Shown here: positions 24,091 through 64,000 of the stretch, piece by piece
Layout of the letters: the number at the start of each line of letters is the position of its first letter
Position numbering within the stretch: the first letter of the stretch is position 1
Source of the DNA: Candidatus Nomurabacteria bacterium
GTDB lineage: Bacteria > Patescibacteriota > Minisyncoccia > Phycocordibacterales > UBA918
Direction of reading: 5' to 3'
DNA length: 64,000 nt
Assembly: GCA_020632035.1 (NCBI GenBank)
Contig: JACKGG010000005.1
Location: 4,855-68,854, forward strand
The notes under the pieces: generated by a model
What the model saw: the letters and a program-made list of their open reading frames with translations, nothing else
Told to the model about the DNA's origin: nothing
The model's database searches: none
Translations under genes and position numbers: made by a program

Positions 24091-25071
24091 ATGAAAACAA
24101 TTAAAAAAACGGACGTGGTAATTATTGGAGCGGGATTCTCAGGGCTTTATTTGGCACATCATTTAGTAAAGGTTGGTAAACGTGATTTCCTCATTGTTGC
24201 GCCCGATATGCAAGCTGTGAGTGACAAGTCATACTTCAATATCAGGTCTAGGGGGGTAAAGCAGACTTCGTTAAAAGAATCTATGAATGTCGCAAGTTAC
24301 GGTATGAGCAACAGACAGTTAGTTAATGTGCTCGTTAACAATATTGATGATGAACTTACATACTTAAGTCATATAACGAAAATGAAACCATCTTTCCTTG
24401 GTGCAATTGTAGCAAGGCCTAAATCGTTGATGAACAAGATACGTAAGGAATCAATCCACAACAGGGTATATGCGGAGGTGTCTTCAGTTAAAAAAAGACA
24501 TGGATACGTAGAAGTCATAACAACTGAAGGTAAGATTCATTGCAAGAAGGTTGTATTTTGCTTCGGTGGTTTAAGAGCGAGATTGTCAGAAAAGTTTGTT
24601 GATGAGAAGGTTAAGAATAACCTTTTTAAGGCTGCTAAAGATGTTGGTTGTGATGTTTTGTATCAAGACCTGGTTATGAAGCATCCTTTCTACTCAAAAG
24701 GTGTCTGCATTCCTAGTGATGATTTGTATAACTTTGATTTCGTTGATGATAAGGAAAAACGTCTTGAGTTAACACATCACTTAGTTAGGGCACATAATGC
24801 CCATCATAGGTTTGATGATATTTGCAAAGAATATCAGAGGACAATAAAGCGCTACGCAATAAATAGAGATAAAATAATTGAATTGGATATAGAGCCTCAT
24901 TTTGTCTTGGGTGGAATAAAGATAAACAGAAGAGGAGAGACAAAGGTAAAAAATGTTTATGCTTTAGGAGAATGCGCTTATGGCATGCATGGCAAAGGTA
25001 GATTAGGAGGTGGTTCCATCGCAGAAATTCTCGTTATGTCTAGAGTGGTTGCAAAACAGATTATTGGTTAG
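24091..25071 (+). CDS. FAD-dependent oxidoreductase (short NadB/FrdA-like flavoprotein)
   Basis: The N-terminal Rossmann motif is 'DVVIIGAGFSGLYLA'. The C-terminal 'ALGECAYGMHGKGRLGGGSIAEILV' resembles the C-terminal FAD-binding motif of L-aspartate oxidase and succinate dehydrogenase flavoproteins. Confidence 0.6.
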   Translation: MKTIKKTDVVIIGAGFSGLYLAHHLVKVGKRDFLIVAPDMQAVSDKSYFNIRSRGVKQTSLKESMNVASYGMSNRQLVNVLVNNIDDELTYLSHITKMKPSFLGAIVARPKSLMNKIRKESIHNRVYAEVSSVKKRHGYVEVITTEGKIHCKKVVFCFGGLRARLSEKFVDEKVKNNLFKAAKDVGCDVLYQDLVMKHPFYSKGVCIPSDDLYNFDFVDDKEKRLELTHHLVRAHNAHHRFDDICKEYQRTIKRYAINRDKIIELDIEPHFVLGGIKINRRGETKVKNVYALGECAYGMHGKGRLGGGSIAEILVMSRVVAKQIIG

Positions 25072-25086
25072 TGCCTACGATATAAG

Positions 25087-25113
25087 TCCGAACATCCACC
25101 ACCCAGCGGAGCC
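25087..25113 (+). repeat. copy C of the direct-repeat family (TCCGAACATCCACCACCCAGCGGAGCC)
   Basis: It lies between the oxidoreductase stop (25071) and the umuC start (25139). Confidence 0.55.
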
Positions 25114-25138
25114 TAAGTTAGCTTGCTATAATACTTTT

Positions 25139-26389
25139 ATGAACCCTTCCTTGATTGGACTTTTGGATTGCAACAATTTTTTTGTATCGTGTGAAAGACT
25201 GTTCCGACCGGATCTAATAGGGAAGCCAGTGGTAGTGCTGTCCAGTAATGATGGTTGTGTAGTAGCTCGATCGAAAGAGATAAAGGACATGGGTATACCA
25301 ATGGGTGTCCCTTACTTTCAGATAAAGGACATTTTAAAAAAAGCTGATGCCGTAACGTTTTCTTCGCACTTTTCTTTGTATCGAGACATCTCAAAAAGAG
25401 TGTTTTCTGTCATGCACAAAGAACTTGGTTTTATTGAGCAATATTCGATAGATGAAGCTTTCTTTACTGTAAGTTCAGGAGCAGAAGAAGTCGCACATAA
25501 CTTAAAAAGAGTGATTGAAAAACAAGTAGGTATCCCAGTTTCAATTGGCTTGGCACAAACAAAAACTCAAGCAAAATATGCTAATTCAATAGCTAAAAAG
25601 GGCACAGGGGTCTGTGCCCTAAGGTTGTCTGATTGGCAGGCTATAGCTAAAGATATTCCCCTAGCTAGTATCTGGGGCGTCGGCGGAAAAACGGAGCTTT
25701 TATATAAAAAACACGGTCTTGAAACCGTTGCGGATTTTATTGTGTTGGATCAATCTAGAGTGGCTAGTTTATTTGGACTGTCTGGCATTAGACTACAACA
25801 AGAATTGATCGGTAATCCAGTGTTTTCGGTTGAACATAAAGTATCTACCCAACAAAGTATTTTGAGCTCAAGATCTTTTTCTGAGACGGCTACAGATTTG
25901 TCTGTTTTGGCTGATGCAGTGGCTTACCATGTGCGTCACGCCACTGCTAATTTGAGATCCTTGGGATTGGAGGCAGGTAAGATCAGAGTCTCGATTCGGC
26001 CGAGTAGACACAGTGATTTTATGCTTCGTGGGGGCTCTAAAGAAGCCTTTATGATTGCTCCTACTGCTGATTCTATATCATTGCTCAGAGTAGCAAACGA
26101 TCTCTTAAAAGATCTGCATGAACCGGGCGTACCCTACAAAAAAGTGGGTGTCGTGTTGTCTCTATTCAGCCCAGTAAACCAAGGACAAACTACGCTTTTT
26201 CCAGACGATACTAAAGTCAAACATGACACGCTGATGTCATTGGTGGACAGCCTTAATACTAAGATAAAAAAAGAATCAGTGTTACTAGGGTCGAGATTGT
26301 TAAGTTCGGCTTGGCAAGCAAAGAGTGAAGTGTGTTCACCGAGCTATACGACTAACTGGTCAGAGGTGGTAATAACTAAAGCTCAATAA
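25139..26389 (+). CDS. umuC: Y-family DNA polymerase, UmuC-like (Pol V catalytic subunit)
   Basis: 'GLLDCNNFFVSCERLFRPDLIGKPVVVLSSNDGCVVARSKEIKDMGI' matches the Y-family N-terminal palm motif. The 417-aa length is UmuC-like. The start was moved to the Met at 25139. Confidence 0.85.
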   Translation: MNPSLIGLLDCNNFFVSCERLFRPDLIGKPVVVLSSNDGCVVARSKEIKDMGIPMGVPYFQIKDILKKADAVTFSSHFSLYRDISKRVFSVMHKELGFIEQYSIDEAFFTVSSGAEEVAHNLKRVIEKQVGIPVSIGLAQTKTQAKYANSIAKKGTGVCALRLSDWQAIAKDIPLASIWGVGGKTELLYKKHGLETVADFIVLDQSRVASLFGLSGIRLQQELIGNPVFSVEHKVSTQQSILSSRSFSETATDLSVLADAVAYHVRHATANLRSLGLEAGKIRVSIRPSRHSDFMLRGGSKEAFMIAPTADSISLLRVANDLLKDLHEPGVPYKKVGVVLSLFSPVNQGQTTLFPDDTKVKHDTLMSLVDSLNTKIKKESVLLGSRLLSSAWQAKSEVCSPSYTTNWSEVVITKAQ

Positions 26390-26695: not shown

Positions 26696-27829
26696 ATGTT
26701 CGCAAAAGCAACAAACGTTGGCTTTGCGCAACGGGTGGTCGCGACACTTGTTGCCTGTTCATTAGTACTTTGGTCAATCGGAGTCTACTCAACAGCACAA
26801 GCAGCCAACCTAACATTATTCAGTGATACTTTGTCAGACTCAGACTTAAGTGTTACATCGTCTCATACTATTGAGTTCGATTTGCCAGCTGGATCACCAG
26901 GTATCCTGGCAGGAGATGACATTGTCATTACATGGGACAGCCAGGACGATGGAGCCGGTGGTCAAGACTTCGGTGGTATTGCCGCTATTGTCGACAACTC
27001 TGATTTAACTTACCAAGTTAACTTGGGCGGTCCGGCAGCACCAAACTATGTTGCATCAGACGGAAACTCACTAACAATTGACGGCATAGTAGCCTCAGCG
27101 GGAGACACTGTAGAAATCGTAGTCGCGGATGGAGTAATTACTAACCCAGCTGTGAGTGGCTCATTCGAAATTGAGGTCGCAATCGCAAACGTTGATAATG
27201 ACCTTGGTCGTACTCGTGTCGCTATTGTTGACAATGTAACTGTGACAGCAATAGTAGATACAAGTTTTGACTTTACTATTACTGGACTAGCCACTTCTTC
27301 TGCAGTTAATGGATCAGTTACTACTGGTTCAACATCTCCAGTTCTAATTGACTTCGGTAAGCTAGTAGCTGATACACCAGAGATTCTTGCTCAAGAACTA
27401 ACTGTTGTAACCAACTCTAGAAACGGGTTCGTAGTAACTGTTAATACTGACGGAGATCTTCAGTCTTCAAACGGCGCTATCATTGATAACTTTGATGAAG
27501 GCACAGATGTGTCTGACACAGGTACAGCCTGGAACTCACCAGCTCCAGACGTCAATGACGAAACCACTTGGGGACACTGGGGAATGACATCTACAGATGG
27601 TGACCTGAACTCACTAGGTGGATACTACACAGGAGAGTTTGGAGCCAATGATTACATTGCTGCTTCAACCACTCCACGAGCAGTGTTCCATCACGATGGT
27701 CCATCTGATGGTCTAACACAGAATATTGGAACAACAACAGTTGGATACCAGATAGAAATCACCTCGCTTCAAGAAGCGGCCGATGACTACACTGCAACTC
27801 TAACTTACGTAGCGACCCCTACTTTCTAA
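26696..27829 (+). CDS. secreted protein with WxL-like C-terminal domain
   Basis: Signal peptide (LVACSLVLWSIGVYSTAQA). The C-terminal end '...DDYTATLTYVATPTF' resembles the terminal LTWxLxDxP motif of WxL surface domains. An internal 'NIG..T' block is shared with the C-termini of the giant ORF and the 61694 gene. Confidence 0.45.
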   Translation: MFAKATNVGFAQRVVATLVACSLVLWSIGVYSTAQAANLTLFSDTLSDSDLSVTSSHTIEFDLPAGSPGILAGDDIVITWDSQDDGAGGQDFGGIAAIVDNSDLTYQVNLGGPAAPNYVASDGNSLTIDGIVASAGDTVEIVVADGVITNPAVSGSFEIEVAIANVDNDLGRTRVAIVDNVTVTAIVDTSFDFTITGLATSSAVNGSVTTGSTSPVLIDFGKLVADTPEILAQELTVVTNSRNGFVVTVNTDGDLQSSNGAIIDNFDEGTDVSDTGTAWNSPAPDVNDETTWGHWGMTSTDGDLNSLGGYYTGEFGANDYIAASTTPRAVFHHDGPSDGLTQNIGTTTVGYQIEITSLQEAADDYTATLTYVATPTF

Positions 27830-27844
27830 GTAAACGCTAAATCA

Positions 27845-27871
27845 AAAAACCTCCTAAATAGGAGGTTTTTT
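27845..27871 (+). terminator. rho-independent terminator
   Basis: AAAAACCTCCTA-AA-TAGGAGGTTTTTT. Confidence 0.6.
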
Positions 27872-27950
27872 GTGTATATAAGTTATAAACAAAATTATGG
27901 GAGGTGTTATTATTAGTCTTATTCCAAAATGTACAACAATTAACTAATCT

Positions 27951-29039
27951 ATGGCTATTTTACGCTTGTCCAATATTAAACTGAGAGCAGGAGCATTTAT
28001 GCTAGCGCTGATAGCTGTTATAATTTTTTTGATTACTCCTCATCAGGCAGGAGCTCAGCAGGTTGGTGTTAGTATAACTCCTGCTACAATTGAAGAAACT
28101 TTAGATCCTAGTCAAGAACAGACCTACACACTAACAATTGAAAACCTAAACAGTTCAGACCAAAAATACTATTTGTTTACTAAAAATATTTCTGGAGTTG
28201 AAAATGGAGGGGTGCCAATATTTGCAAAAAGTGATCAAGAAGTCACAGGTTATGAACTCACTGATTGGATAGATCTTCCACTAAATGAAGTCGACGTCAG
28301 TGCTGGGGAAGAATATAGTTTTCAGTTTAAGATTTCTGTTCCTGAAAATGCTACGCCGGGCAGCCACTTTGGAGGGATATTTATCTCAGTTGACCCACCA
28401 GAAATAGAGAAAAGTGGAGCAGCTGTGGGTTACCAGGTAGCTAATATAATTAGTATACGGGTGTCAGGTAAGGCCAAAGATGAAGCAACTATAAGACAGT
28501 TTTCGACTACTAAATTTTTTTACGGATCACAGAATGTAGATTTTTTGGCTCGTATAGAAAATACCGGTAACGTATTGATACGCCCAGTTGGTTTATTAGA
28601 AGTTTACAACATGCTGGGTAAAAAAGTTGGTGATGTAGGATTTAATACAGAAAGATCAGCAGTCTTCCCAAATGATACTCGAGAGTTCAATAAGATTTCT
28701 TGGCAAGGAAACTCGATTGGTTTTGGTCGATATGAGGCCCAGTTAAGTGCTAATTACGGTGATTCAGGAGCCAAAAAAAGCATGTATAGTACTGTTTCAT
28801 TTTGGATATTGCCAATGAACATAATTGGCCCGGCGCTTGCGGTTTTGGCAGTCTTGTTCCTAATTATATTTATATTTGTTAGAGTCTATATAAAGCGGTC
28901 ATTGTCTCACATAAACTATGGACGAAGGATTGTAAAAAAACGAAGGAACAACAGCTCTTCAACAACGTTGCTGGTTATAGTGGTTACTCTTACGGTTACG
29001 GCTTTATTCCTCATTGTAATGCTGGCACTTTTTGCATAG
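27951..29039 (+). CDS. DUF916-like cell-surface protein with C-terminal TM anchor and basic tail
   Basis: Signal peptide. The N-terminal beta-rich region 'VGVSITPATIEETLDPSQEQTYTLTIENL' is like DUF916 (CscB-type). A C-terminal TM helix is followed by 'KRRNNSSS' and a second hydrophobic segment. Confidence 0.45.
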   Translation: MAILRLSNIKLRAGAFMLALIAVIIFLITPHQAGAQQVGVSITPATIEETLDPSQEQTYTLTIENLNSSDQKYYLFTKNISGVENGGVPIFAKSDQEVTGYELTDWIDLPLNEVDVSAGEEYSFQFKISVPENATPGSHFGGIFISVDPPEIEKSGAAVGYQVANIISIRVSGKAKDEATIRQFSTTKFFYGSQNVDFLARIENTGNVLIRPVGLLEVYNMLGKKVGDVGFNTERSAVFPNDTREFNKISWQGNSIGFGRYEAQLSANYGDSGAKKSMYSTVSFWILPMNIIGPALAVLAVLFLIIFIFVRVYIKRSLSHINYGRRIVKKRRNNSSSTTLLVIVVTLTVTALFLIVMLALFA

Positions 29040-29059: not shown

Positions 29060-29464
29060 GTGACACACAACTCTACCTATCATAGAATCTTAAGGATTTC
29101 TGCCCTCGTCTGTGCAGTGGTTCTTCTATTTGAGAGTGGATTGTTAAGCCAAACTTCAGCAAAAATGGCTCATGATACTAGTGTGTATCTGGCCAATGCA
29201 ATTGGTATGTCAGCCTCAGTTCAGCCAACAGAGCTAAATACCTATACTGCAGCTTTGACGCAAAAGGAACGTGAGCTTGATTCTAGGGAAGCAGCTTTAA
29301 GAGAAAGAGAAGTTGCAGTAAATCTTTCAACTGATAGTAATTCATCAGATACTGTAACTTATATTTTGGCTAGCATTCTTTTTGTCCTACTAGTGCTTAT
29401 ACTTCTAAACTACACACTTGACTATATAAGAGCAAAAGAAGCGAGAATGTCGCAAACTGTGTAG
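29060..29464 (+). CDS. small bitopic membrane protein with coiled-coil segment
   Basis: 134 aa with N- and C-terminal hydrophobic helices flanking 'KERELDSREAALREREVAV'. Confidence 0.4.
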   Translation: MTHNSTYHRILRISALVCAVVLLFESGLLSQTSAKMAHDTSVYLANAIGMSASVQPTELNTYTAALTQKERELDSREAALREREVAVNLSTDSNSSDTVTYILASILFVLLVLILLNYTLDYIRAKEARMSQTV

Positions 29465-29507: not shown

Positions 29508-31412
29508 ATGGATTTCGTGATAAAACAACGAGCGCTGTTTTATGCTTTGCTCCTAGCTTTTTTAGGAAGTCTATTTTTTGTCAACTCAGATTTTGCTGAA
29601 GCTGTGAATGTTGTTGAGTACAAAGACGTTATATCTGATTCCGGTCCATCAGAGCAATCCAATCATAGTCTATCGTTTGTCTTGAATACTAATCTTTCGC
29701 CTGGAAGTACATTTGAGGTCACTCCACCAGATGGGTTTAGCGTTATTTCTGCTGCCACTTTTGCAGAAAGAAACGTAGAGTTAGTTATCGATGGTATACC
29801 AAGAGTAGCCAGTGATGCGCTTGCTCCTGGAGTCGATATGGTAGAAATTACTCCAGGTTCACCTGGCTTTATTAAGTACACCCTAGCGCCAGATGCTTCT
29901 GTGAGTTCTGGCAGTCAAATCGAATTCAAGATCGGTAACCATACTTCTAATTCTCAGCAAATAGGAACAGCCTACAGTTCGACAACTGGTACGACCACTG
30001 TACCAGCAGACATAGAGCCAATTATTAACTCATCAGATTTAGGGAAACACGATGTCCAGTTAGAGATATATGACGGTAGCTTAGTTGCCAACGCTGACTT
30101 TGTAGTTTTCTTAGTTGAAAAAGTGCAAATGCCAGGTATTGATACTACTGAAGAAATTCCTCCATTTCGTTTTAATCCGGCTCCAACTAGTACAGTAGGA
30201 GGAACTACGCTCAGTGTAGAAATATCTCTGGAAACAGATGAGTTTGCAATTTGTCGGTATAGCACTAGTCCAGATGTTGCTTACGTTGCAATGACCAATA
30301 CTTTCAGTAATACTGGTTTAATCTACCACTCAACTGTGGTGACGGTCACTCCAAGTACAGTCGCTTCATATTATGTAAGATGTATCGATGATGAAGGCAA
30401 CTTCAACATAGACGACTTCTTAATACAGTTTACTGTTAATGATACTCCAACCGGGACTTCAAACGAAGAGGGTGACGTAGACGGAGATGGTACTGGTACT
30501 GGGAATTCTGGTAGTGGGGATGGTTCTGGTGGAGGAGGTACATCTGGTGCTTCAGATGGTGTAGAACCATTGGCAGGGGGTAGTACTGGTTCTGGTGGTT
30601 CTGGCGGTGGCGGGGGAGGCGGCTCAGGCGGTAGTTCTGGTAGTTCAGGAGGAGGAGGTTTTGAGAGTACTGATGCTCCATACAGAAGTGGTGACGGTCG
30701 GGTAGAAATCTCTGGCTACGCTTATCCAAACAGTTCGGTCACGATTTTGGTTGACGGTAACATTTTTTCGACAGTGAAAGCAAATAGCTCTGGCTCTTAC
30801 TCTGAGACTCTAGATGAAATTGCTAGAGGTGTATACACCTTTGGTGTGTACGCCGACGATTCTAATAGAGTACGGTCTTCTACTTTTAGCACCTCGTTCA
30901 CTGTCACAGGAGCGCGGACCTCTGCTTTGAGTAACATCAATGTCTCACCATCAATCTCAGTAGACCCAGACCCGGTTAATCCTGGCCAGACGCTAACCTT
31001 GTCTGGTTACGCATTACCAAATTCAGTTGTCACTATAGAAAACGGTCGACTAAATCGAGCTAGTAGTCAAACATTGTCTGCAAATTCTGATTCAAGTGGT
31101 AAGTGGAGTACAATCATACCAACCAATGGATTTACAGTTGATACATATCAAGTTAGAGCCAAATCACAGCAGGACGGAGGCCAAACAACTCAGTTTTCGA
31201 AGTATACTTTTTATGGAGTCGGCAAGTCAGCTGATGTCCCACTAAACGCCGACTTAAATAGAGATGGTAAGGTTAACCTTATAGACTTTTCTATCTTGCT
31301 ATTCTGGTGGGGTGGAACTGGTGGTGACTCAGACCCGCCTGCCGATATAAACCTAGATGGTAACGTGAGTCTAACCGACTTCTCGATCCTTCTCTTCAAC
31401 TGGACTGGATAA
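29508..31412 (+). CDS. secreted multi-domain protein with Gly/Ser-rich linker, Ig-like repeats and C-terminal dockerin
   Basis: Signal peptide. An about 60-aa Gly/Ser linker sits near 30470-30670. The C-terminal tandem calcium-binding repeats 'ADLNRDGKVNLIDFSILL' and 'ADINLDGNVSLTDFSILL' (about 31231-31409) form a type-I dockerin signature. Confidence 0.65.
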   Translation: MDFVIKQRALFYALLLAFLGSLFFVNSDFAEAVNVVEYKDVISDSGPSEQSNHSLSFVLNTNLSPGSTFEVTPPDGFSVISAATFAERNVELVIDGIPRVASDALAPGVDMVEITPGSPGFIKYTLAPDASVSSGSQIEFKIGNHTSNSQQIGTAYSSTTGTTTVPADIEPIINSSDLGKHDVQLEIYDGSLVANADFVVFLVEKVQMPGIDTTEEIPPFRFNPAPTSTVGGTTLSVEISLETDEFAICRYSTSPDVAYVAMTNTFSNTGLIYHSTVVTVTPSTVASYYVRCIDDEGNFNIDDFLIQFTVNDTPTGTSNEEGDVDGDGTGTGNSGSGDGSGGGGTSGASDGVEPLAGGSTGSGGSGGGGGGGSGGSSGSSGGGGFESTDAPYRSGDGRVEISGYAYPNSSVTILVDGNIFSTVKANSSGSYSETLDEIARGVYTFGVYADDSNRVRSSTFSTSFTVTGARTSALSNINVSPSISVDPDPVNPGQTLTLSGYALPNSVVTIENGRLNRASSQTLSANSDSSGKWSTIIPTNGFTVDTYQVRAKSQQDGGQTTQFSKYTFYGVGKSADVPLNADLNRDGKVNLIDFSILLFWWGGTGGDSDPPADINLDGNVSLTDFSILLFNWTG

Positions 31413-31782: not shown

Positions 31783-32265
31783 ATGTCGTTCTTGCAAAGA
31801 TTGAAAGGTCGGGGAGTTAGGAGTGGCGAAGCTTCTCTTTTGTCAGACGCCGAAGAAACGGCGGTAGATAAAGTAGCTCAATTGCACGTTGATGTTTTTC
31901 AAACTGAACGCATGATTGTTGTGTATGCACAATCAGCTGGAGCTGATATGAATGACGTTCATGTCTCGATTGAAGGAGATGCAGATATTGTTCTTATCGA
32001 AGGTAAAAGAATCAGGCCAGAATATATTGTTTTCCCTAAAAAGAAAGTCAGTGGATCTTTCGTGGCAGAAGAATGTATTTGGGGAGATTTTTACCGAAGG
32101 ATTATCTTGCCTGAAAGTGTAAATATAGATAAAGCTGAAGCAAAAATAAAAAATGGTGTTCTGATCCTCGTCCTGCCACTTTTGAAGCCAAGTGAAAAAG
32201 AAAAAGTTCAGTTAAAAGTTATGGGAGGTAAAGGCATTACTAAGCCTAGGCAGAAGCCAAATTAG
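31783..32265 (+). CDS. Hsp20/alpha-crystallin family small heat-shock protein
   Basis: 160 aa. The alpha-crystallin domain motifs are 'VHVSIEGDADIVLIEGKR' and 'GSFVAEECIWGDFYRRIILPESVNIDKAEAKIKNGVLILVLPL'. Confidence 0.8.
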   Translation: MSFLQRLKGRGVRSGEASLLSDAEETAVDKVAQLHVDVFQTERMIVVYAQSAGADMNDVHVSIEGDADIVLIEGKRIRPEYIVFPKKKVSGSFVAEECIWGDFYRRIILPESVNIDKAEAKIKNGVLILVLPLLKPSEKEKVQLKVMGGKGITKPRQKPN

Positions 32266-32286: not shown

Positions 32287-33816
32287 ATGTTGTACCTTTT
32301 AAATAAAATTTCAAAACTAACACTAGCAGTCGGATTTACTGTAGCTTTGTTTCTGTCTCTATTTTCTTATACATATGCAGCGGATTTATCAATTTCTCCA
32401 AGCACAGGCTCTTACACTGTAGGTCAAACTTTCACTGCTACCATACGAGCAATCCCAAATGGTGACAGTGTAAACGCAGTTGAGGCAACTTTATCTTACA
32501 ACCCTGCCGTTTTGTCGGTAGTGAGTGTTAGTAAGACTGGTTCAGCTTTCTCGCTTTGGACTACAGAACCAACGTTTTCAAACTCGGCTGGCACTATTCA
32601 GTTCGGAGGTGGTAGTCCGACACCATTTACATCTTCCTCAAACTTGTTGAGCGTCACTTTCAGAACAGTTGCAGAAGGTACAGGATCAATAAAGTTTACA
32701 GAAGCATCAGTTTTAGCCGCAGATGGTAGAGGAACTGATGTATATAAAGCAGCAACAGACGGATCTTTTACGGTTACAGCCGGCACCGCTCCAACACCAA
32801 CTCCAACACCAACTCCTACTCCGACAGACACTGCAGAAGAATCAGATAATGAAGAAGCAATTATCTTTGGTGATCCTCCAAGGCAACCAGAAGTAGGTTC
32901 CCAGACTTTCCTTGATCCCGAAATTTGGTACAACCGAACAGATGGTGTCTTTACTTGGACCCTACCGTTTGATGTTAGTGCCGTAGCAGTGGAAATCTCA
33001 GATGACCCTAATAACATTCCTCAAGACCATGAAGATTCGATTATTGATCCACCGGTTGAAGAATTTTCTGTCAGTAAAGAAACTGTTAAGGATGGAGTAC
33101 AGTACATCAGTGTTAACTTTCAAAACCAAGTCGGTTGGGGAGCAGTTACAAACAGAAAAGTTCAAATCGATACAACTCCACCCGAACCTTTTGCAATAAA
33201 TGTTCAGGCTGGAAATTCGCCAACCTCATTCCCGCTACTAAAGTTTGAAGCTACTGACAAAACTTCAGGTATCGAGTATTACGACATGACGATTGCTGAT
33301 AAGGAACCATTACGGGTTACACCAGATGAGGCTAGATTGGGTTACTTACTAAAAGAACTTGAAGATGGTACTTATACTGTCAAAGTCATTGCTACTGACA
33401 GGGCAGGAAACGTTAGAGAAAGTAGTGTGGCTGTCCTTATAACTGCTGGTTGGATTAAGCCAGTTGAAAATCTAGACGAAGGTTCATTCTGGGACTTTAT
33501 CACAGCTGTCAACCTGTTTATTTTCTTCCTAGTTGTTATAATCTTATTGCAGATAGTATACTTCTGGTATGAGCATAAACGTCTAAAAGAAAAAGATGAA
33601 AAGTTGAGAAGAGAGACTCGAGAAATTCAAGATCAGATGGAAAAGATATTCTCTGCTTTAAGGGACGAAATATACGACCAGATAAACACAATAACAAAAA
33701 GGAAAAGAATGTCAGTCAAAGAAAAGGAGGCGGTTGAACAACTTACACAAGCGCTTGAAGTGTCAGAGACCTTGATTGAGAAGGAAATCAATGACGTAAA
33801 GACAATTTTGAAGTAA
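32287..33816 (+). CDS. membrane-anchored cohesin-domain protein (scaffoldin-like) with TP-repeat linker and cytoplasmic coiled-coil tail
   Basis: Signal peptide. The cohesin-like beta-sandwich is 'ADLSISPSTGSYTVGQTFTATIRAIPNGDSVNAVEATLSYNPAVLSVVSV...IKFTEASVLAADG' (about 32380-32785). A (TP)n linker follows. The TM helix is 'FITAVNLFIFFLVVIILLQIVYFWY', and a charged coiled coil (KEKDEKLRRETREIQDQMEK...) follows it. Confidence 0.6.
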   Translation: MLYLLNKISKLTLAVGFTVALFLSLFSYTYAADLSISPSTGSYTVGQTFTATIRAIPNGDSVNAVEATLSYNPAVLSVVSVSKTGSAFSLWTTEPTFSNSAGTIQFGGGSPTPFTSSSNLLSVTFRTVAEGTGSIKFTEASVLAADGRGTDVYKAATDGSFTVTAGTAPTPTPTPTPTPTDTAEESDNEEAIIFGDPPRQPEVGSQTFLDPEIWYNRTDGVFTWTLPFDVSAVAVEISDDPNNIPQDHEDSIIDPPVEEFSVSKETVKDGVQYISVNFQNQVGWGAVTNRKVQIDTTPPEPFAINVQAGNSPTSFPLLKFEATDKTSGIEYYDMTIADKEPLRVTPDEARLGYLLKELEDGTYTVKVIATDRAGNVRESSVAVLITAGWIKPVENLDEGSFWDFITAVNLFIFFLVVIILLQIVYFWYEHKRLKEKDEKLRRETREIQDQMEKIFSALRDEIYDQINTITKRKRMSVKEKEAVEQLTQALEVSETLIEKEINDVKTILK

Positions 33817-57382: not shown

Positions 57383-57431
57383 TCTTAGTATGTATACTTT
57401 TATCAGAATGTTGCATGCTACACTTAAGGTA

Positions 57432-58985
57432 ATGAATCGTACTTCTGTCGTATTTTTGAGTTCAGTATTGATTTTTGTTGTTGCTTTTCCGGCAACTTCT
57501 TTCTCTCAATCTAATGATCAAACAGCACCTGAAATCTCAGCTGTTGAAATTTCTGAGGTAAGCAATAATAGTGTAACTATAACTTGGGAAACCGATGAAG
57601 ACGCTGACTCTTTGGTTAACTATGGCCTACAACCAGACTACGGTATTGTTAGAATCCCAGTGGCTGATCGTACTTCACACTCAATTACTCTAGATGACCT
57701 TGAGCCAGGACGAATCTATTACTTCAGAGTTGTTTCGGCCGACGAGGAAGGAAACCAGGGAATCTCAGCCGATTATCGTGTACAGACTTCTGGTTCTGCC
57801 CAAGCAGGTGAAGGTTTAGGTGCTGGCAATGAAGATGGTCTTGGTGACGGACAGGATGTTCAAGTAGGAGATGGACCAAATCGCGATCAAGAGTCACAAA
57901 TAACAACTGATACGATTTCTGATTCGACTGCCACTTTAAGAATTATCGAACAGATTAATCAAATTACTAATCCAGAGCAACTACAAGAGATTGTTAACGA
58001 AACTGTCAAAGCCATTCAAGGTATTACAGAAGACTTGACTATCGTTGGCCCACCAACAGTTATACCGGAAACTAACACAGCAGTAATAAAATGGACAACT
58101 GACCGCGAAGCTTCATCTGAGGTCATCTTTTCCCCAACGGCTTCATTTGACGGCTCAAATTATGCTTATTCTCAGCAGTCTACTGGCGGAAACACGACAG
58201 ATCATGAAATTCAAGTCATCGGTTTGGATGCTTTTACAGGTTATTCGTTTAAGGTTTTGTCTACTGATACGTTTGGAATAACTGGAGAAAGTCGTAATTA
58301 CACCTTTAAAACAAAAGCCACGGCTCCAAATATCCGTAATCTTAGAGTGGTTAAAGTTGAGGAAAATGCTGCCACTCTGGCCTGGGATACTAATGTCCCC
58401 GCTAAGGCTTTGGTTGAGTATCAAGATCAAACCACTGGTGCTCAAAATTCAGTTGGTCGTCCAACTTTGTCGACTACACACCAGATGCGCTTAGCGGATC
58501 TTACGCTTGGTACAAGATATGTTGCTTTTGTAACAGCTGAAAACTCAGGTGGTGATAGAATTAAGAGTCAACCAATCCAGTTTATTACAGTCAAAGATAT
58601 TGCTGCTCCAATAATTACTAATGTTACAAATGAGTCTACTTTGTTTCCAGGGAGTGAGTCTAGAATTCAGACTATTATCGAATGGGATACGGATGAGCCC
58701 TCATCTTGTCTTATGACATATCAAGAAGGAGTGGCTGGAGGAACTGACTCGTTTACGATTGAAAAAGAACAGGTGGAATATAAATCAAAACACGTGGAAG
58801 TAGTAATCGACTTTGCACCAGCAACTGTTTACCAGTTTTATCTTGAATGTGTCGACGAAGCAGGCAATGAAGTAAAGTCTGAAAACTTTGTCCTCTTTAC
58901 TCCTATTCAGGAGAAAAACATTATTGATTTGATTCTTGAAAACTTCCAGTCAACCTTTGGTTGGGTCAAGAATATTGGAGGTTAA
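57432..58985 (+). CDS. secreted protein with four fibronectin type III-like repeats
   Basis: The start is placed at Met 57432, which has an AAGG 6 nt upstream and a clean signal peptide (VVFLSSVLIFVVAFPATSFSQ). Four repeats follow of the form 'AP.I......V..T...W.T.......V.YG....Y.......T.H...L..L...T.Y.F.V.S.D..GN'. Confidence 0.6.
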   Translation: MNRTSVVFLSSVLIFVVAFPATSFSQSNDQTAPEISAVEISEVSNNSVTITWETDEDADSLVNYGLQPDYGIVRIPVADRTSHSITLDDLEPGRIYYFRVVSADEEGNQGISADYRVQTSGSAQAGEGLGAGNEDGLGDGQDVQVGDGPNRDQESQITTDTISDSTATLRIIEQINQITNPEQLQEIVNETVKAIQGITEDLTIVGPPTVIPETNTAVIKWTTDREASSEVIFSPTASFDGSNYAYSQQSTGGNTTDHEIQVIGLDAFTGYSFKVLSTDTFGITGESRNYTFKTKATAPNIRNLRVVKVEENAATLAWDTNVPAKALVEYQDQTTGAQNSVGRPTLSTTHQMRLADLTLGTRYVAFVTAENSGGDRIKSQPIQFITVKDIAAPIITNVTNESTLFPGSESRIQTIIEWDTDEPSSCLMTYQEGVAGGTDSFTIEKEQVEYKSKHVEVVIDFAPATVYQFYLECVDEAGNEVKSENFVLFTPIQEKNIIDLILENFQSTFGWVKNIGG

Positions 58986-59051
58986 GTTTGCTAAAACTAT
59001 ATTGGGGATATATATAACTAGTTTTTGGTAAAGCAGTGTCATAATACATAA

Positions 59052-60374
59052 ATGGCAAAACCGCTCATTGTAGCTCGGGATCTTTCGATTATTTATAATA
59101 AAGGAAAATCCAACGAATTTAAGGCTCTCCAGGGTGTTAACACGGACATCTTTGAAGGAGAGTACATTATTTTGTTTGGCCCTTCTGGTTGTGGAAAGTC
59201 AACGCTCATGTACTCAATCCAGGGATCTCTTCCGCCTGGAGAAGGTACTTTGCTAATTAAAGGCGATGATGTTTATTCTTACCCACCCTCAGAACGCGTT
59301 TATTTCCAACGCCACGTTATGGGTATTATTTTTCAATCTTTTAACCTGATCGGGTCACTATCGGTACTCGACAACGTGGCATTACCAATGATCTTTTGTG
59401 ATGCCGACCGCACTACGCGTGAAAGACGAGCTCAGTCCTTGCTTGACCGTTTTGGAGTTGGTCACGTATCACACAAAATCCCTGCTATGCTTTCAGGAGG
59501 ACAGCAACAAAGAGTTTCAGTAGCTCGGTCAATGGTTAATGACCCCAAGATTCTTTTGGCTGACGAACCAACTGGTAACCTAGACTCAATCTCAACCCAA
59601 CAAGTTATGGATAAGATCGATGAGATTAACACCTTCGATCGAAGAACTATTATTATGGTTTCCCATAATGCAGCGCACCTGAGTTATGCTCATAGGGTTT
59701 ACTATCTTAGAGATGGTAGAATCGTGCGTGAGGTTGTTAACCCACAGCGAAAGCAAATAAAACCAGTAAGAGAAGGAGAGACTATTGTAACTGAGCTGGA
59801 ACAGTTAGCCAGGTTATTTCCGTACGACTCAGTAGAAACCCTAAGGGTAAAAAGTTTAGTCAACTACCTTACTCAAGACTATAGCTTTGACCAGATAATA
59901 AAGCTCGAACGGGCCACCTCACTTTTTATTCAAGGAAAAATTGACAGAGCCTCTTATATAAAAAGTTTAATCCTACCAACTGAAAGGGGCGGGGTACAAA
60001 TTGACGAGAAAGAGGCTCGCCGTATGGCCAACATTTCAGAAAAAATGATAAAAAACGCTGATGATATACGTAGATTTAGAGCCAGAAAAGACAATAACGA
60101 TATATTTTTTAGCCAGCATATTTTAGCTGAAAGAATGCAGGAACATTTACTCCAAACCTACCGAATAAAGTTGGACAAAAAACAAGCTAGTAACATGACT
60201 GAAGTTATAGCTGATAGAGTAACTGGCGTTATTGAGGAAGAAGAACTAAATCAAAGATTAATGAAAAGTGTTCGCTCGCATGGTTTGGGGCTGAGCGAGA
60301 AGGAGGCAGATGATTTAACTAGATACTTCGAAAAAATAATTGCTCAAGGAGTTGATGTAAACTATAAGAACTAG
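59052..60374 (+). CDS. ABC transporter ATP-binding protein (MacB/LolD/FtsE-like) with about 210-aa C-terminal extension
   Basis: Walker A is 'GPSGCGKST', the signature is '[15 protein letters not shown]' and Walker B is '[12 protein letters not shown]'. After about aa 230 there is a charged helical domain with no recognised homology. Confidence 0.85.
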
Positions 60375-60376
60375 AT

Positions 60377-61591
60377 ATGAGAATCCAAGACTTGGCACAA
60401 CTTTCGACTAGAATGTTCAAGACAAATCCACTTCGAACCTGGCTTACTATTTTGGGTATGGGAGTGGGTACTGGTGCAGTAGTGGTCTTGGTTGGTCTTG
60501 GCTTTGGGTTGCAGCAAATTATTTTGGAACAGATTGTTTTTGGCGAGACCCTGCTTTCGCTTGGAGTATCATCAACCGGCTCGCAAGGATTACGACTCAC
60601 CCCAGAAACAGTTTTAGATTTTGAAAAAAATGAAGCTGTGCTCGATGCTGCGCCACTGGCTAGATTTCCGGCCTTGGTTACCTACAAAGGTCTTACAGGA
60701 AATGTGTTTGTACAAGGTGTAGAACCGCCATATCTTCGCTATGCCGGAGTCACGGCCGTAGCGGGAGACGTTTTTCTAGAAGAAGATTTAGGCGACACCA
60801 ACTCAATTATGATTTCCCCGGCAACCTTGAAATTGTTCGGAATTCCAGATGAAGAGATGGACAATTTTATTGGTGAAAAAGTATCAATCCGTCTATTGGT
60901 GCCAGCAGATGACGGAACAGAAAATGTGAATGAAATCGTAATTGATAAAGAATACCGAGTGCGCGGTATCTCCAAAGAAGAAGGGGTGTTAAACATTATG
61001 ATGATGCTACCTGAACTTAGAAATTATGTCGGTATCGAAGAATATGAACGTATACAGGTAAGAGTTGATTCTAACGAGAATCTACCTTTGGTAGAAACCA
61101 AGCTGATTGAGGAAGGGTATCGAGTGACAGCTCTTTCAAAAACAGTTGAGCAAGCTTCAAAAATCTTTCAAGGTATCCAGGCCGTATTGGCTACTTTTGG
61201 TGGTATCGCACTTATTGTGTCTGCTATCGGAATGTTTAATACCATGACAGTGACCTTGCTAGAAAGAACAAAAGAAATTGGAATCATGCGTACGATTGGA
61301 GCCTCTCCAAACGATGTAAAATATTTGTTCGTCTCGGAGTCAGTGGTAGTAGGTTTTCTTGGTGGAGTAAGCGGAATCTTGATGGGTGTAACTCTGGGAG
61401 TGACAGTAAATCTTTTCTTAAATATCGTGGCCGGTCAGTTTGGTGGACAAGCAGTTAAACTATTTGCTTTTCCTTTCAATTTCCTAGCTTTTATTACCAT
61501 TTTTTCTGCAGCTGTCGGCTACTTAACTGGTATCTTCCCAGCAAGAAGAGCTTCCACTCTTAATCCACTAGACGCTATCAGGTACGAGTAA
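60377..61591 (+). CDS. ABC transporter permease, FtsX/MacB-type (4 TM, large extracytoplasmic domain)
   Basis: It starts 2 nt after the ATPase stop. An N-terminal TM helix is followed by an extracytoplasmic domain of about 220 aa, and the C-terminal three TM helices contain the FtsX-like 'TKEIGIMRTIGASPNDV' motif. Confidence 0.8.
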   Translation: MRIQDLAQLSTRMFKTNPLRTWLTILGMGVGTGAVVVLVGLGFGLQQIILEQIVFGETLLSLGVSSTGSQGLRLTPETVLDFEKNEAVLDAAPLARFPALVTYKGLTGNVFVQGVEPPYLRYAGVTAVAGDVFLEEDLGDTNSIMISPATLKLFGIPDEEMDNFIGEKVSIRLLVPADDGTENVNEIVIDKEYRVRGISKEEGVLNIMMMLPELRNYVGIEEYERIQVRVDSNENLPLVETKLIEEGYRVTALSKTVEQASKIFQGIQAVLATFGGIALIVSAIGMFNTMTVTLLERTKEIGIMRTIGASPNDVKYLFVSESVVVGFLGGVSGILMGVTLGVTVNLFLNIVAGQFGGQAVKLFAFPFNFLAFITIFSAAVGYLTGIFPARRASTLNPLDAIRYE

Positions 61592-63619: not shown

Positions 63620-63658
63620 GCAACAGCCATTGTTATCCAACAATGGCTGTTGCTTTTT
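63620..63658 (+). terminator. rho-independent terminator
   Basis: GCAACAGCCATTGTT-ATCCA-ACAATGGCTGTTGC followed by TTTTT. Confidence 0.65.
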
Positions 63659-63689: not shown

Positions 63690-64000
63690 ATGAATTTATT
63701 TTCGCGAACGTTTTTTCTAGTTCTCTTTGTGCCTGTGCTTTTTGTAAGTACTGGTTTAAATAAAGCTGAAGCAGGTTTTGGGATTACTCCACCCTACGTA
63801 AGAAATGTTAGCTTGACTCGAAACTCTACTTATGAACAACAAATTTTGCTGGTGAGAGGAGATCCAAACGTGGCACAAAAGGCAGAAATAATCGTTGACG
63901 CTCCTGAAATACAAGATTGGATAGAAGTACTAGAAGGAGATGAGATAAAAATGCCAGTTGGTACTACTAAGGTCCCGATGACTGTAAGGGTTACCGTTCC
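63690..64000 (+). CDS. DUF916-like secreted protein, N-terminal fragment (3' end outside window)
   Basis: ATG at 63690 with signal peptide 'FFLVLFVPVLFVSTGLNKAEA'. The N-terminal 'GITPPYVRNVSLTRNSTYEQQILLVRG' parallels the N-terminus of the 27951 product. The ORF is absent from the track because it runs off the window. Confidence 0.4.
   Translation, partial: MNLFSRTFFLVLFVPVLFVSTGLNKAEAGFGITPPYVRNVSLTRNSTYEQQILLVRGDPNVAQKAEIIVDAPEIQDWIEVLEGDEIKMPVGTTKVPMTVRVTV

Follow-up and report, generated by a model that had tools for sequence, protein, structure and literature searches.

A conserved CPR gene island joining pilin-like proteins to DUF916-type partners: a probable Pam-like pilus and adhesin-display system

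Introduction

The lifestyle of CPR bacteria is thought to involve attachment to host cells. The organelles that serve this purpose are only beginning to be identified, and one of them, the Pam pilus, was described in 2026 (bioRxiv 10.64898/2026.03.03.709456). This pilus of Candidatus Mycosynbacter amalyticus (CPR, Saccharimonadia) involves the pilins PamA and PamB and the chaperones PamC and PamD, which are two-domain, C-terminally membrane-anchored, PapD-like proteins (bioRxiv 10.64898/2026.03.03.709456). The Pam pilins consist of a beta-sandwich N-terminal domain, a single linker strand and a truncated Ig-like C-terminal domain, the donated linker and the groove of the C-domain being their most conserved parts; they were reported predominantly in Saccharimonadia and Microgenomatia, not in the class of the locus described here (bioRxiv 10.64898/2026.03.03.709456).

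In the WxL/csc clusters of Firmicutes, CscA and CscC are WxL proteins, CscB is the WxLIP protein, composed of DUF916, DUF3324 and a transmembrane (TM) helix, and CscD is an LPXTG protein (PMC1534035, PMC10599100). WxLIP proteins carry the conserved N-terminal segment NQIDKxxxYFDLK (PMC10599100), and AF2 predicts that they bind WxL by inserting a strand that completes the beta-sandwich of the client (PMC1534035, PMC10599100). The role of the DUF916/WxLIP family in these clusters has been unclear. No paper connecting DUF916 to CPR, or WxL to assembly by donor strands, came up in our literature search.

Results

The window analysed here is a 64,000-nucleotide stretch of contig JACKGG010000005.1 from a Candidatus Nomurabacteria bacterium; positions count from its first letter, and all features given below lie on the + strand. 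In an initial annotation, two gene pairs of the window, 26696-27829 with 27951-29039 and 61694-63598 with the partial 63690-64000, had been read as csc-like, each with a WxL-like gene followed, after a terminator, by a DUF916-like gene. The ORF coordinates are correct and terminator-like hairpins do follow both first genes. The hairpin at 27843-27872 (A6-CCUCC-loop-GGAGG-U6, z-score -2.9), which resembles an intrinsic terminator and lies between the pilin and chaperone-like genes, was found by reading and folding the sequence, a consensus terminator scan making no call at this position; the one after the 61694 gene, at 63620-63653, has a 15-bp stem followed by a T run. Recurrence of the pairs in related genomes proved to be widespread: the GTDB species-representative genomes contain 164 matching loci, and the gene order is kept across dozens of species. 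The DUF916-type gene lies directly 3' of the pilin-type gene in 66 of the 77 cases that could be evaluated in these genomes (median gap, 125 nt), and the gene for the second chaperone-like protein lies directly 3' of the 61694-type gene in 48/48 evaluable loci. Downstream of the latter, a dockerin protein is encoded and then, in every locus with enough sequence (21/21), a second pilin. There are two pilin paralogues per genome; the genes for the second dockerin protein and second pilin lie just outside the window, past the 63690 gene. We consider it probable that both gene pairs form the core of one conserved island of ~40 kb, which in this ultra-small, Kaiserbacteria-like CPR host would specify a surface appendage working in a Pam-pilus-like mode. 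The island is probably not a true WxL/csc cluster.

The product of 26696-27829 (377 aa) is a secreted, abundant-looking and highly conserved protein with a pilin-like architecture; the match to a Pam pilin model described below, the AF2 architecture and the conservation of the family mark it as the major pilin-like protein. It consists of a signal peptide (aa 1-36), a variable beta-sandwich N-terminal domain (aa 37-178, 26804-27229), a conserved linker that is a candidate donor strand (aa 179-214, 27230-27337) and a conserved C-terminal domain (aa 215-377, 27338-27826). More than 1200 CPR homologues (protein clusters) were found, every one named hypothetical. In the AF2 monomer the N-terminal domain is predicted with confidence (pLDDT 83-94), and the beta-rich C-terminal domain with moderate confidence (65-84). 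The linker, ~35 residues with alternating hydrophobics, cannot be placed in the monomer (pLDDT 31-49), yet it ranks with the best-conserved parts of the family (conservation 0.80-0.82), a pattern also reported for the Pam pilins.

The sole NCBIfam model matched recurrently by this family is NF058581, CPR_Pam_pilin_C. Residues 218-377 of the 26696 product align with positions 6-148 of the 148 in the model (E 1.1e-3), and 28 of 34 family members are matched (best E 1.5e-6), mostly in a colinear fashion (model positions 3-148 of 148 in most members) and ending at the protein C-terminus. All scores of the family (15-28 bits) are far below the curated cutoff of 55 bits, an observation that weighs against calling the island Pam-like. 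Because the matches are below the cutoff but recurrent and colinear, we read the C-terminal domain as distantly related to the Pam pilin C-domain, that is, as a probable remote homologue rather than a member of the family. When the PDB was searched by Foldseek with the AF2 model, CfaE, FimH and CupB6, which are tip adhesins of chaperone-usher systems, appeared in the top matches; these are generic two-Ig-domain proteins matched with low TM-scores, and the top 50 contained no WxL, WxLIP or Pam entries. The family profile found no match among PDB sequences.

The gene that follows, 27951-29039, had been described as DUF916-like with a C-terminal TM anchor, and this description holds: PF06030 scores 34.1 bits (gathering cutoff, 27.3) and the anchor is present. 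Its 362-residue product, a membrane-anchored protein of the WxLIP/DUF916 type and a putative pilin chaperone or anchor, has a signal peptide, DUF916 (aa 51-145), a second Ig-like domain, a TM helix at ~287-312, a basic loop and another TM helix at ~338-362. PF06030 matches 24/24 members of the family (best E 3.2e-9), whose orthologues are already named 'DUF916 domain-containing protein' by NCBI; the product also matches EfmWxLIP1 in the PDB (9i25_C, 9i1y_A; E 3e-4). When compared by hhalign with seven genuine Firmicute WxLIP proteins, it aligns at 97.1% (E 4.8e-11, 276 columns) across DUF916, the position of DUF3324 and the TM helix. It is thus homologous to WxLIP over the full length, with a similar size (362 aa vs 337-365), a signal peptide and an aligned TM helix. 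PF11797 (DUF3324/WxLIP_HBD) has no match in the 24 family members, although the hhalign alignment still crosses that domain, and the NQIDKxxxYFDLK segment is missing, with an 11-residue gap exactly there. The lack of a PF11797 match and of this segment, and the presence of two C-terminal TM helices, the extra one and the basic loop before it not being described for WxLIP, set the protein apart from the Firmicute WxLIP proteins and count against the Pam-like reading of the island.

Only the first 103 codons of the second chaperone-like gene (63690-64000) lie in the window. The full product (318 aa) was read from L012, a contig with an identical copy of the 61694 gene; in it, a signal peptide is followed by two beta domains and a TM helix at the C-terminus. 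By hhalign it aligns with the 27951 family at 95.6% (E 1.3e-8), and family against family at 96.9% (E 1.3e-10). The two partner proteins are therefore paralogues of the DUF916/WxLIP family, each with two Ig-like domains and a membrane anchor. This kinship is visible only at the profile level and with the full-length gene: BLASTP of the 27951 product against the 103-aa fragment returned nothing, and PF06030 does not match even the full-length product from L012. The reading of the partial gene as DUF916-like thus stands as regards its relationship to 27951 but not as regards a direct Pfam match. Among the three Pfam families brought forward in the initial annotation, PF06030 is found in 27951-29039, but neither PF13731 (WxL) nor PF11797 is found.

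The giant surface protein encoded at 33932-57382 (7816 aa, with an N-terminal signal peptide) and the 634-aa secreted product of 61694-63598 end in a common, widespread and unannotated C-terminal module, here called GCT. It occupies aa 7627-7815 of the giant (56810-57376; GCT HMM, E 1.7e-61) and aa 421-634 of the 61694 product (62954-63595; E 6.4e-60), and BLASTP aligns the 61694 product with the C-terminus of the giant at E 9e-13 (28% identity over 240 aa). Orthologues of the giant, found at the same position, have 7413-7738 aa with DUF2341 and pentaxin-like repeats; the 61694 product carries a conserved 'ATTTLxVLNTPP' strand after its signal anchor. The GCT family comprises at least 1460 clusters (50% identity) at E<=1e-3, and in nearly all of the 150 best of these the module is at the extreme C-terminus, in proteins of 145 to 7622 aa. 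Pfam and NCBIfam yielded no consistent family for its members, and an AF2 model from an 8-sequence alignment reached a pLDDT of 33. A C-terminal domain common to the giant, the 61694 product and the 26696 product had been proposed. For the first two the proposal is borne out, the motif pairs noted at the time aligning as well, but the 26696 product has to be set aside. In BLASTP the latter gave no match to either of the other two. With small and enlarged alignments and in local, low-mact and global modes, hhalign of its C-terminal domain against GCT and against WxL gave 0.2-5%; for the two GCT proteins the values were 0.4-5% even with 200- and 145-sequence alignments. Because of these values we claim no homology between the pilin C-domain and GCT or WxL. 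Between the 26696 product and the GCT proteins, nothing but short colinear motifs can be matched: IxFGxL and, as a terminal strand, xxYxxxLT[YF]xA.

A WxL identity had been suggested for the 26696 product, the 61694 product and the C-terminus of the giant; it is not supported by HMM, profile or motif. PF13731 finds no match in the three window proteins at E<=1, at E<=10 in 24 sequences of the 26696 family and 8 of GCT, or in 70 GCT members at E<=1. An HMM of 11 genuine WxL domains gave no match in the window, and an hhalign profile of the same domains gives at most 1%. The W-x-L motif is absent from the 26696 product and the giant C-terminus, and in the 61694 product it occurs as WNL and WFL only in a Cys-rich region upstream of the shared core. 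As for other known families, the 26696 C-domain matches the Pam pilin C model, below its cutoff, and GCT matches none. The small protein encoded at 29060-29464, once taken as a possible CscD-like partner, has N- and C-terminal hydrophobic helices around a coiled coil and no LPXTG-like motif; since there is no LPXTG protein in the cluster, we do not regard it as CscD-like. It gave no family match above threshold.

These results bear on a csc/WxL-type complex, in which divergent WxL C-termini would bind peptidoglycan non-covalently, the DUF916 protein (CscB/WxLIP) would stabilise them, and proteins including the giant adhesin would be displayed with no filament. Such a complex, which we judge unlikely, would fit the genuine full-length WxLIP homology of the 27951 product. 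It would also fit the presence of a C-terminal module on clients that range from small to giant, as WxL proteins do, next to a WxLIP-type gene, and weak motif echoes (NGFVVTV vs GWxLxV, and a terminal strand xYxxxLT[WYF]x[LA]). However, the 24, 8 and 70 sequences searched hold no WxL signal by HMM or profile (hhalign <=1%), the W-x-L dyad is missing from 26696 and the giant C-terminus, a CscD-like LPXTG protein is lacking, and the 26696 C-domain matches the Pam pilin model instead. Moreover, one of the clients in the island is pilin-like and carries a candidate donor strand, and csc clusters have no counterpart to its conserved linker, which AF2 leaves unplaced, or to the protein encoded at 29508, which has the pilin N-terminal domain only. 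The conserved docking of surface proteins put forward for this locus is plausible, but chaperone-type strand complementation, a mode of binding also predicted between WxLIP and WxL, describes it better than peptidoglycan binding of the WxL type.

The two GCT genes are separated by a block (57294-61591) that encodes, by Pfam, an FN3-repeat secreted protein (from 57294, the real start probably being near 57432), an ABC ATPase (59052-60374) and a MacB/FtsX-type permease (60377-61591). In 12 metagenome loci, ~4.2 kb separate the end of the giant gene from the 61694-type gene downstream of it, and in L012, too, the permease lies directly upstream of the 61694-type gene. GCT might be imagined as a C-terminal sorting or retention signal, for instance for a MacB/FtsX-type ABC transporter, with the chaperone-like neighbour serving the pilins only. 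The transporter genes and their recurring spacing agree with this idea, as do the strictly C-terminal position of GCT in nearly all of the 150 best of 1460 clusters, reminiscent of sorting domains, and its dissimilarity to pilin domains. We nevertheless hold it to be quite improbable: ~190 conserved residues are many for a mere signal, and the 61694-type gene has a chaperone paralogue of its own on its 3' side in 48/48 loci, an adjacency that argues for a direct partnership. Finally, it is very improbable that the 26696 product is a surface-layer or matrix protein (like S-layer proteins, BslA or TasA) that does not polymerise, and that its adjacency to the DUF916 gene reflects co-expression of envelope proteins only. 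Its very high conservation and the terminator after its gene do suggest an abundant structural protein, and 3/24 family members have weak BslA matches. These are sporadic, however (best E 0.0044), compared with 28/34 for the Pam pilin model, and the strict adjacency and two parallel clusters argue for a functional pair.

Two further genes of the island, both conserved in synteny, encode a dockerin and a cohesin protein. The 634-aa dockerin protein (29508-31412; hhalign and Dockerin_1) is a candidate chain terminator or anchor subunit. It has the pilin-type signal peptide, N-terminal domain and linker start, followed by a Gly-rich spacer, Ig-like domains and a C-terminal dockerin (Dockerin_1, 28.2 bits; gathering cutoff, 22.9), and it is devoid of the pilin C-domain. 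Its likeness to the pilin family (hhalign, 99.5%, E 1.5e-22; pilin residues 7-226 on 9-247) is limited to the N-domain and the linker start. The dockerin proteins of the island bear either this pilin N-domain or a DUF4215 module rich in Cys. The membrane-anchored cohesin protein (32287-33816, 509 aa) is composed of a signal peptide, a cohesin domain at aa 42-163 (PF00963, 34.6 bits; gathering cutoff, 24.1), a PT linker, an Ig-like domain, a TM helix at ~420-445 and a cytoplasmic coiled-coil tail. As in cellulosome scaffoldins, dockerin-bearing secreted and cohesin-bearing membrane-anchored proteins, both above the Pfam thresholds, are thus encoded in one operon; unlike in cellulosomes, no glycoside hydrolases are attached, and the dockerin proteins sit in a pilus-like island.

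Discussion

Our best reading of the sequence data is that the island probably encodes a Pam-like, chaperone-assisted donor-strand pilus combined with an adhesin-display system. As in Pam, the bacterium belongs to the CPR and lacks an outer membrane. Its pilin, exported through Sec, combines a beta-sandwich N-domain with a conserved linker and C-domain, the latter with its colinear, sub-threshold NF058581 match. Two pilin paralogues are present (compare PamA and PamB), and there is no sign of an usher or of another machine spanning the envelope. The adjoining chaperone-like protein has the two-domain, C-terminally anchored architecture described for PamC and PamD (WP_260763277.1, WP_260763284.1). 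In contrast to Pam, the island belongs to a Paceibacteria/Kaiserbacteria lineage rather than to the classes reported, a point against the Pam-like reading, and its partner is demonstrably of the DUF916/WxLIP family, a link of which the Pam paper makes no mention. Neither a single-domain PamT-type tip nor a PamR-type FnIII anchor was found in the island; it has, instead, the pilin N-domain-dockerin protein, the membrane-bound cohesin, the 7816-aa adhesin and the GCT module.

Chaperones of the PapD/FimC type, and likewise PamC and PamD, are described as capping incomplete subunits with a donated strand. We infer donor-strand exchange in the island from the architecture that its genes specify. 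After Sec export, the membrane-anchored DUF916 protein would donate a strand and so cap the pilin's incomplete C-domain; the next pilin would then displace the chaperone strand with its own linker strand, and this exchange would build the filament. The 29508 product, with a pilin N-domain and linker start and no acceptor domain, would end the chain, and its dockerin may fasten the filament base to the cohesin protein in the membrane, encoded at 32287-33816. GCT could act as a handle: through it, the second chaperone-like protein might hold the giant adhesin and the 61694 product, or both might be linked to the appendage. This part of the system would be completed by the products of the second dockerin and pilin genes, beyond the window. 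That GCT is a strand acceptor is a guess from context. GCT has no significant similarity to the pilin C-domain, WxL or any library family, which weighs against that guess.

Read in this way, the island would be similar to chaperone-usher (Pap/Fim) systems in its two-Ig-domain chaperone, its incomplete Ig-like subunits, an acceptor-only tip adhesin and a donor-only terminator like PapH. Further likenesses are the attenuating terminator after the major subunit gene and the presence of CfaE, FimH and CupB6 among the top Foldseek matches. It differs in having no usher and no outer membrane, in the membrane anchor of its chaperone and in the candidate donor strand, which is an inter-domain linker instead of an N-terminal extension; no sequence-level relationship to chaperone-usher systems was detected.

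A broader but doubtful reading is that Firmicute WxL/WxLIP clusters and CPR Pam-type pili are two branches of one ancient, usher-free strand-complementation system of bacteria without an outer membrane, with the membrane-anchored DUF916 protein as the shared chaperone. In the lineage studied here the system would have become modular and had its base fastened by a cohesin-dockerin joint. The 7816-aa adhesin would be an acceptor-only subunit by virtue of GCT, the pilins and, through its N-terminal ATTTLxVLNTPP strand, the 61694-type protein would be both donors and acceptors, and the two dockerin proteins would be donor-only terminators.

Our preferred reading, a Pam-like pilus and adhesin-display island, suggests that systems of this kind reach the Kaiserbacteria/Nomurabacteria branch of the Paceibacteria and are strongly conserved there. 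By tying Pam-like pilins to the DUF916/WxLIP family, the island makes one hypothesis directly testable, namely that WxLIP proteins are PapD-like chaperones anchored in the membrane. It also draws attention to GCT as a large unannotated C-terminal module found on giant adhesins, and to an unusual cohesin-dockerin pair as a candidate anchor. Smaller genes of the island are kept in place as well. Counterparts of the 29060-29464 product are encoded at the same position, with 135-144 aa in loci L001-L003 and 98 aa in L004, and an HSP20 small heat-shock gene within the island (31783-32265; PF00011, E 7.9e-10) retains its position in L001-L004.

Two recurrent gene pairs in one island

The window has a GC content of ~40%, and one strand carries nearly all of its genes. 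The ORFs of the initial annotation were located at their coordinates, including two pairs described as a surface-protein gene followed, after a terminator, by a DUF916-type gene. The first pair encodes a pilin-like protein of 377 aa (26696-27829, +) and a 362-aa partner (27951-29039, +); the second encodes a 634-aa protein (61694-63598, +) and a partner, here called chaperone 2, whose gene starts at 63690 and is cut off by the window end. Terminator-like hairpins were found after both first genes, at 27843-27872 and 63620-63653. Both pairs are real and recur in homologous loci. A scan of GTDB species representatives for the pilin gave 164 loci, 80 of which were fetched; a 27951-type gene came next after the pilin gene in 66/77 evaluable cases, with a median gap of 125 nt. 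The exceptions were mostly a second pilin paralogue in a separate cluster, ordered 61694-type gene, chaperone 2, dockerin protein 2, pilin 2. In a metagenome scan for the 61694 type (49 loci), chaperone 2 came next in all 48 evaluable loci, pilin 2 lay downstream in all 21 with enough sequence, and in 12 the end of the giant gene was found ~4.2 kb upstream. The first cluster has the order DinB, pilin, DUF916 protein, small protein, dockerin protein, HSP20, cohesin protein and giant protein, common to the four contigs with close homologues. The synteny of both clusters indicates that the window holds most of one island of ~40 kb, running beyond position 64000. Expanded systems occur in some genomes (loci L079 and L082), with two tandem DUF916-type genes upstream; in L082, two tandem pilin genes precede the usual chaperone gene.

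The partner genes encode WxLIP-type proteins

The assignment of the 27951 product to DUF916 was right: it scored 34.1 bits on PF06030 (WxLIP_PGBD, formerly DUF916), where the cutoff is 27.3; 24/24 sampled members of its family also matched this model, and some orthologues are already labelled 'DUF916 domain-containing protein' by NCBI. The product also matches the solved EfmWxLIP1 chains 9i25_C and 9i1y_A. We aligned the WxLIP proteins of seven annotated WxL loci from plasmids of Enterococcus, Lactococcus, Lactiplantibacillus and Listeria; against this alignment, the 27951 family reached a probability of 97.1% in hhalign (E 4.8e-11) over 276 columns, spanning the signal peptide, DUF916, the DUF3324 position and the TM helix. 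PF11797 was matched by none of the 24 family members scanned. The two groups differ in that the conserved NQIDKxxxYFDLK segment of WxLIP (PMC10599100) is deleted in the 27951 family and that, in these CPR proteins, a conserved basic loop is added, followed by a second TM helix; only one C-terminal helix is present in Firmicute WxLIP and in the Pam pilus chaperones PamC/D as described. In the 27951 product, this conserved C-terminal end, with the basic loop between its two TM helices, spans aa 287-362 (28809-29039).

The second partner could be completed from L012, a Logan contig retrieved by exact-sequence look-up of the 61694 product, which carries an identical 61694 gene and runs on beyond the end of the window. 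At full length, chaperone 2 has 318 aa; a signal peptide is followed by two domains rich in beta structure, and the C-terminus carries a TM helix. It has no Pfam match of its own. Compared with the 27951 product in hhalign, it scored 95.6% (E 1.3e-8) as a single sequence and 96.9% (E 1.3e-10) as a 7-sequence family alignment; judged by sequence, chaperone 2 is a paralogue of the 27951 product. Chaperone 2 is followed on L012 by a gene for a protein that combines DUF4215 with a dockerin.

The 26696 product is a pilin-like rather than a WxL protein

The first genes of both pairs and the giant protein, a 7816-aa ORF (33932-57382, +), had been taken for members of the WxL family, which proved wrong. 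WxL Pfam models matched none of the window proteins, none of 24 members of the 26696 family, and none of 8 and 70 members of the family of GCT, the C-terminal domain common to the giant protein and the 61694 product. No window ORF was matched by an HMM that we derived from 11 genuine WxL domains, and the W-x-L motif is absent from the 26696 product and the giant C-terminus. Nor was an LPXTG motif found in any protein of the cluster; the small protein with two hydrophobic helices (29060-29464) is therefore not the CscD-like partner that had been suggested.

The sole library match of the 26696 product was to NCBIfam NF058581, 'CPR_Pam_pilin_C' (E 1.1e-3, residues 218-377 against model positions 6-148 of 148). 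This model was matched by 19/24 family members (best E 1.5e-6) and by 9/10 further divergent members, the second pilin paralogue included; scores in the family were all 15-28 bits, below the curated cutoff of 55 bits. NF058581 derives from the Pam pilus of Ca. Mycosynbacter amalyticus. In the pilins of this system, PamA and PamB, an N-domain built as a nine-strand beta-sandwich is joined by a single linker strand to an Ig-like C-domain, which is truncated and takes up the linker of the neighbouring subunit; the chaperones PamC and PamD resemble PapD/FimC and have two domains and a C-terminal TM helix, and Pam pilins are reported predominantly from Saccharimonadia and Microgenomatia (bioRxiv 10.64898/2026.03.03.709456). 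The AF2 model of the 26696 product (pLDDT 83-94 in the N-domain, 65-84 in the beta-rich C-domain and <50 at residues 181-214) fits this plan. The linker (VTVTAIVDTSFDFTITG..., with alternating hydrophobic residues) is one of the family's best-conserved stretches and the N-domain is its most variable part, a linker conservation pattern also reported for Pam pilins (the same 2026 preprint). Foldseek against the PDB returned only generic two-Ig-domain matches, including the chaperone-usher tip adhesins CfaE, FimH and CupB6.

A partial 'hypothetical protein' from a MAG of Candidatus Kaiserbacteria matches the 26696 product with 100% identity. Homologues of the 26696 product form >1200 clusters, every one of them metagenomic and from CPR/Patescibacteria (Kaiserbacteria, Nomurabacteria, Paceibacteria), and none has a Pfam domain or functional name. 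Given this confinement, what had been called a Gram-positive-like reduced genome is that of a CPR bacterium.

The pilin signal peptide (26696-26803) is nearly as conserved as the C-domain, with many invariant residues (MFAKxTxVGFAQRVVATLVA...AQA, then ANLT), and the mature N-terminus ANLTxxSDTLSDS is common to the pilin, the 29508 family and pilin 2. This may reflect processing or recognition in a dedicated step.

A C-terminal module is shared by the giant protein and the 61694 product

The initial annotation had assigned one C-terminal domain to the giant protein and the 61694 and 26696 products. This was correct for the first two: their C-terminal 240 residues are homologous (BLASTP E 9e-13, 28% identity), and the motif pairs originally quoted, NIGNESIDVQISGTDM / NIGNTGLDQSVLGESM and IYWGIEVP...GVNTFTAI / TYWGINVP...GLNSFMAV, align with each other. 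It was incorrect for the 26696 product, which showed no BLASTP similarity to either protein; profile-profile comparison of its family with GCT gave a probability of only 0.4-5%, with 200 pilin-family and 145 C-terminal-domain sequences. Two short colinear echoes are left, IxFGxL near the domain start and the terminal strand xxYxxxLT[YF]xA, which would agree with a beta-sandwich of similar type without being proof of one. When 1.84 billion cluster representatives were scanned in full with HMMER, 1460 GCT proteins were found at E<=1e-3, 381 of these at E<=1e-30. The best 150 of the 1460 matches are proteins of 145 to 7622 residues, and in nearly all of them GCT forms the very C-terminal end. It matched no Pfam or NCBIfam family. 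GCT is a real, widespread and unannotated C-terminal module. The giant ORF also contains at least 6 copies of a ~250-300 aa module with 'FPVY(V/L)DLSTLG..FWS.V..DG.DIR(I/V)T', DUF2341-like in orthologues and interleaved with beta-helix-like Gly/Thr/Ser-rich stretches.

A probable Pam-type system with a WxLIP-type partner

The system is probably a variant of the Pam-type pilus of CPR bacteria in which the partner protein is of WxLIP type. The homologies, architectures and synteny were observed here; the reading they support best is a Pam-like, usher-free system in which chaperones assist strand complementation. The DUF916 proteins would act as chaperones, donor-strand exchange would proceed through the pilin linker, and GCT would be the handle linking adhesins to the system. 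The 29508 product may be a donor-only terminator subunit, tied to the membrane by a cohesin-dockerin joint; its role would resemble in logic that of PapH or PamR. In PapD, two domains stand at right angles. The two WxLIP domains are predicted to do so as well, and a WxLIP strand to make the beta-sandwich of WxL whole (PMC10599100). Neither WxL nor DUF916 is mentioned in the Pam paper (bioRxiv 10.64898/2026.03.03.709456), and our literature search returned no work linking DUF916 to CPR, or WxL to donor-strand assembly; the link between WxLIP and Pam that the island would provide, built on a sub-threshold pilin match and the assumption that PamC/PamD are DUF916-like, therefore appears not to have been drawn before. 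This bridge, and the unannotated GCT module carried by giant adhesins, are the main value of the analysis.

Dockerin, cohesin and other accessory genes

The 29508 product shares its signal peptide, N-domain and linker start with the pilin (hhalign 99.5%, E 1.5e-22), lacks the pilin C-domain and ends in a dockerin; in the 32287 product, an above-threshold cohesin occurs together with a TM helix, and a coiled coil lies on the cytoplasmic side. The island contains a cohesin-dockerin pair (29508-31412 and 32287-33816), with a second dockerin protein at L012:5532-6683. The two dockerin proteins are distinct, one having a pilin N-domain and the other a Cys-rich DUF4215 module, and the membrane-anchored cohesin protein is single. 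All three dockerin/cohesin domains exceed Pfam thresholds; none is attached to a glycoside hydrolase.

A short, conserved beta-strand-like motif, ATTTLxVLNTPP, stands right after the signal peptide in 61694-type proteins (aa ~53-66 in the 61694 product itself); in the second dockerin proteins (L093-L141), ATTTLxLSICGN takes the same place. Among GCT-family representatives, the ATTTL motif occurs in 21/65 proteins of 400-700 aa and 1/25 longer ones, against a background rate of 2% per 120-aa window; it is absent from the giant protein. It may be an N-terminal donor strand.

A DinB/UmuC-type polymerase gene (25010-26389) lies directly upstream of the pilin gene, with an intergenic region of ~300 nt. 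An S24 peptidase (UmuD/LexA-like) gene precedes it in three of the homologous contigs (L001, L003, L004); the fourth, L002, begins at the polymerase gene. In every syntenic contig examined, the genes for the dockerin and cohesin proteins are separated by an HSP20 small heat-shock gene (31783-32265), an odd cytoplasmic passenger within a surface-protein operon. Between the giant and 61694 genes, 59052-61591 encodes an ABC ATPase whose C-terminal extension is long, together with a MacB/FtsX-type permease, the latter also directly upstream of the 61694-type gene in L012; they may have a role in adhesin export or release. Finally, the mechanically listed start of an FN3-repeat gene (57294) overlaps the giant ORF end by 89 nt. 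Met47 opens a typical signal peptide (MNRTSVVFLSS...), and the true start is therefore probably near 57432.
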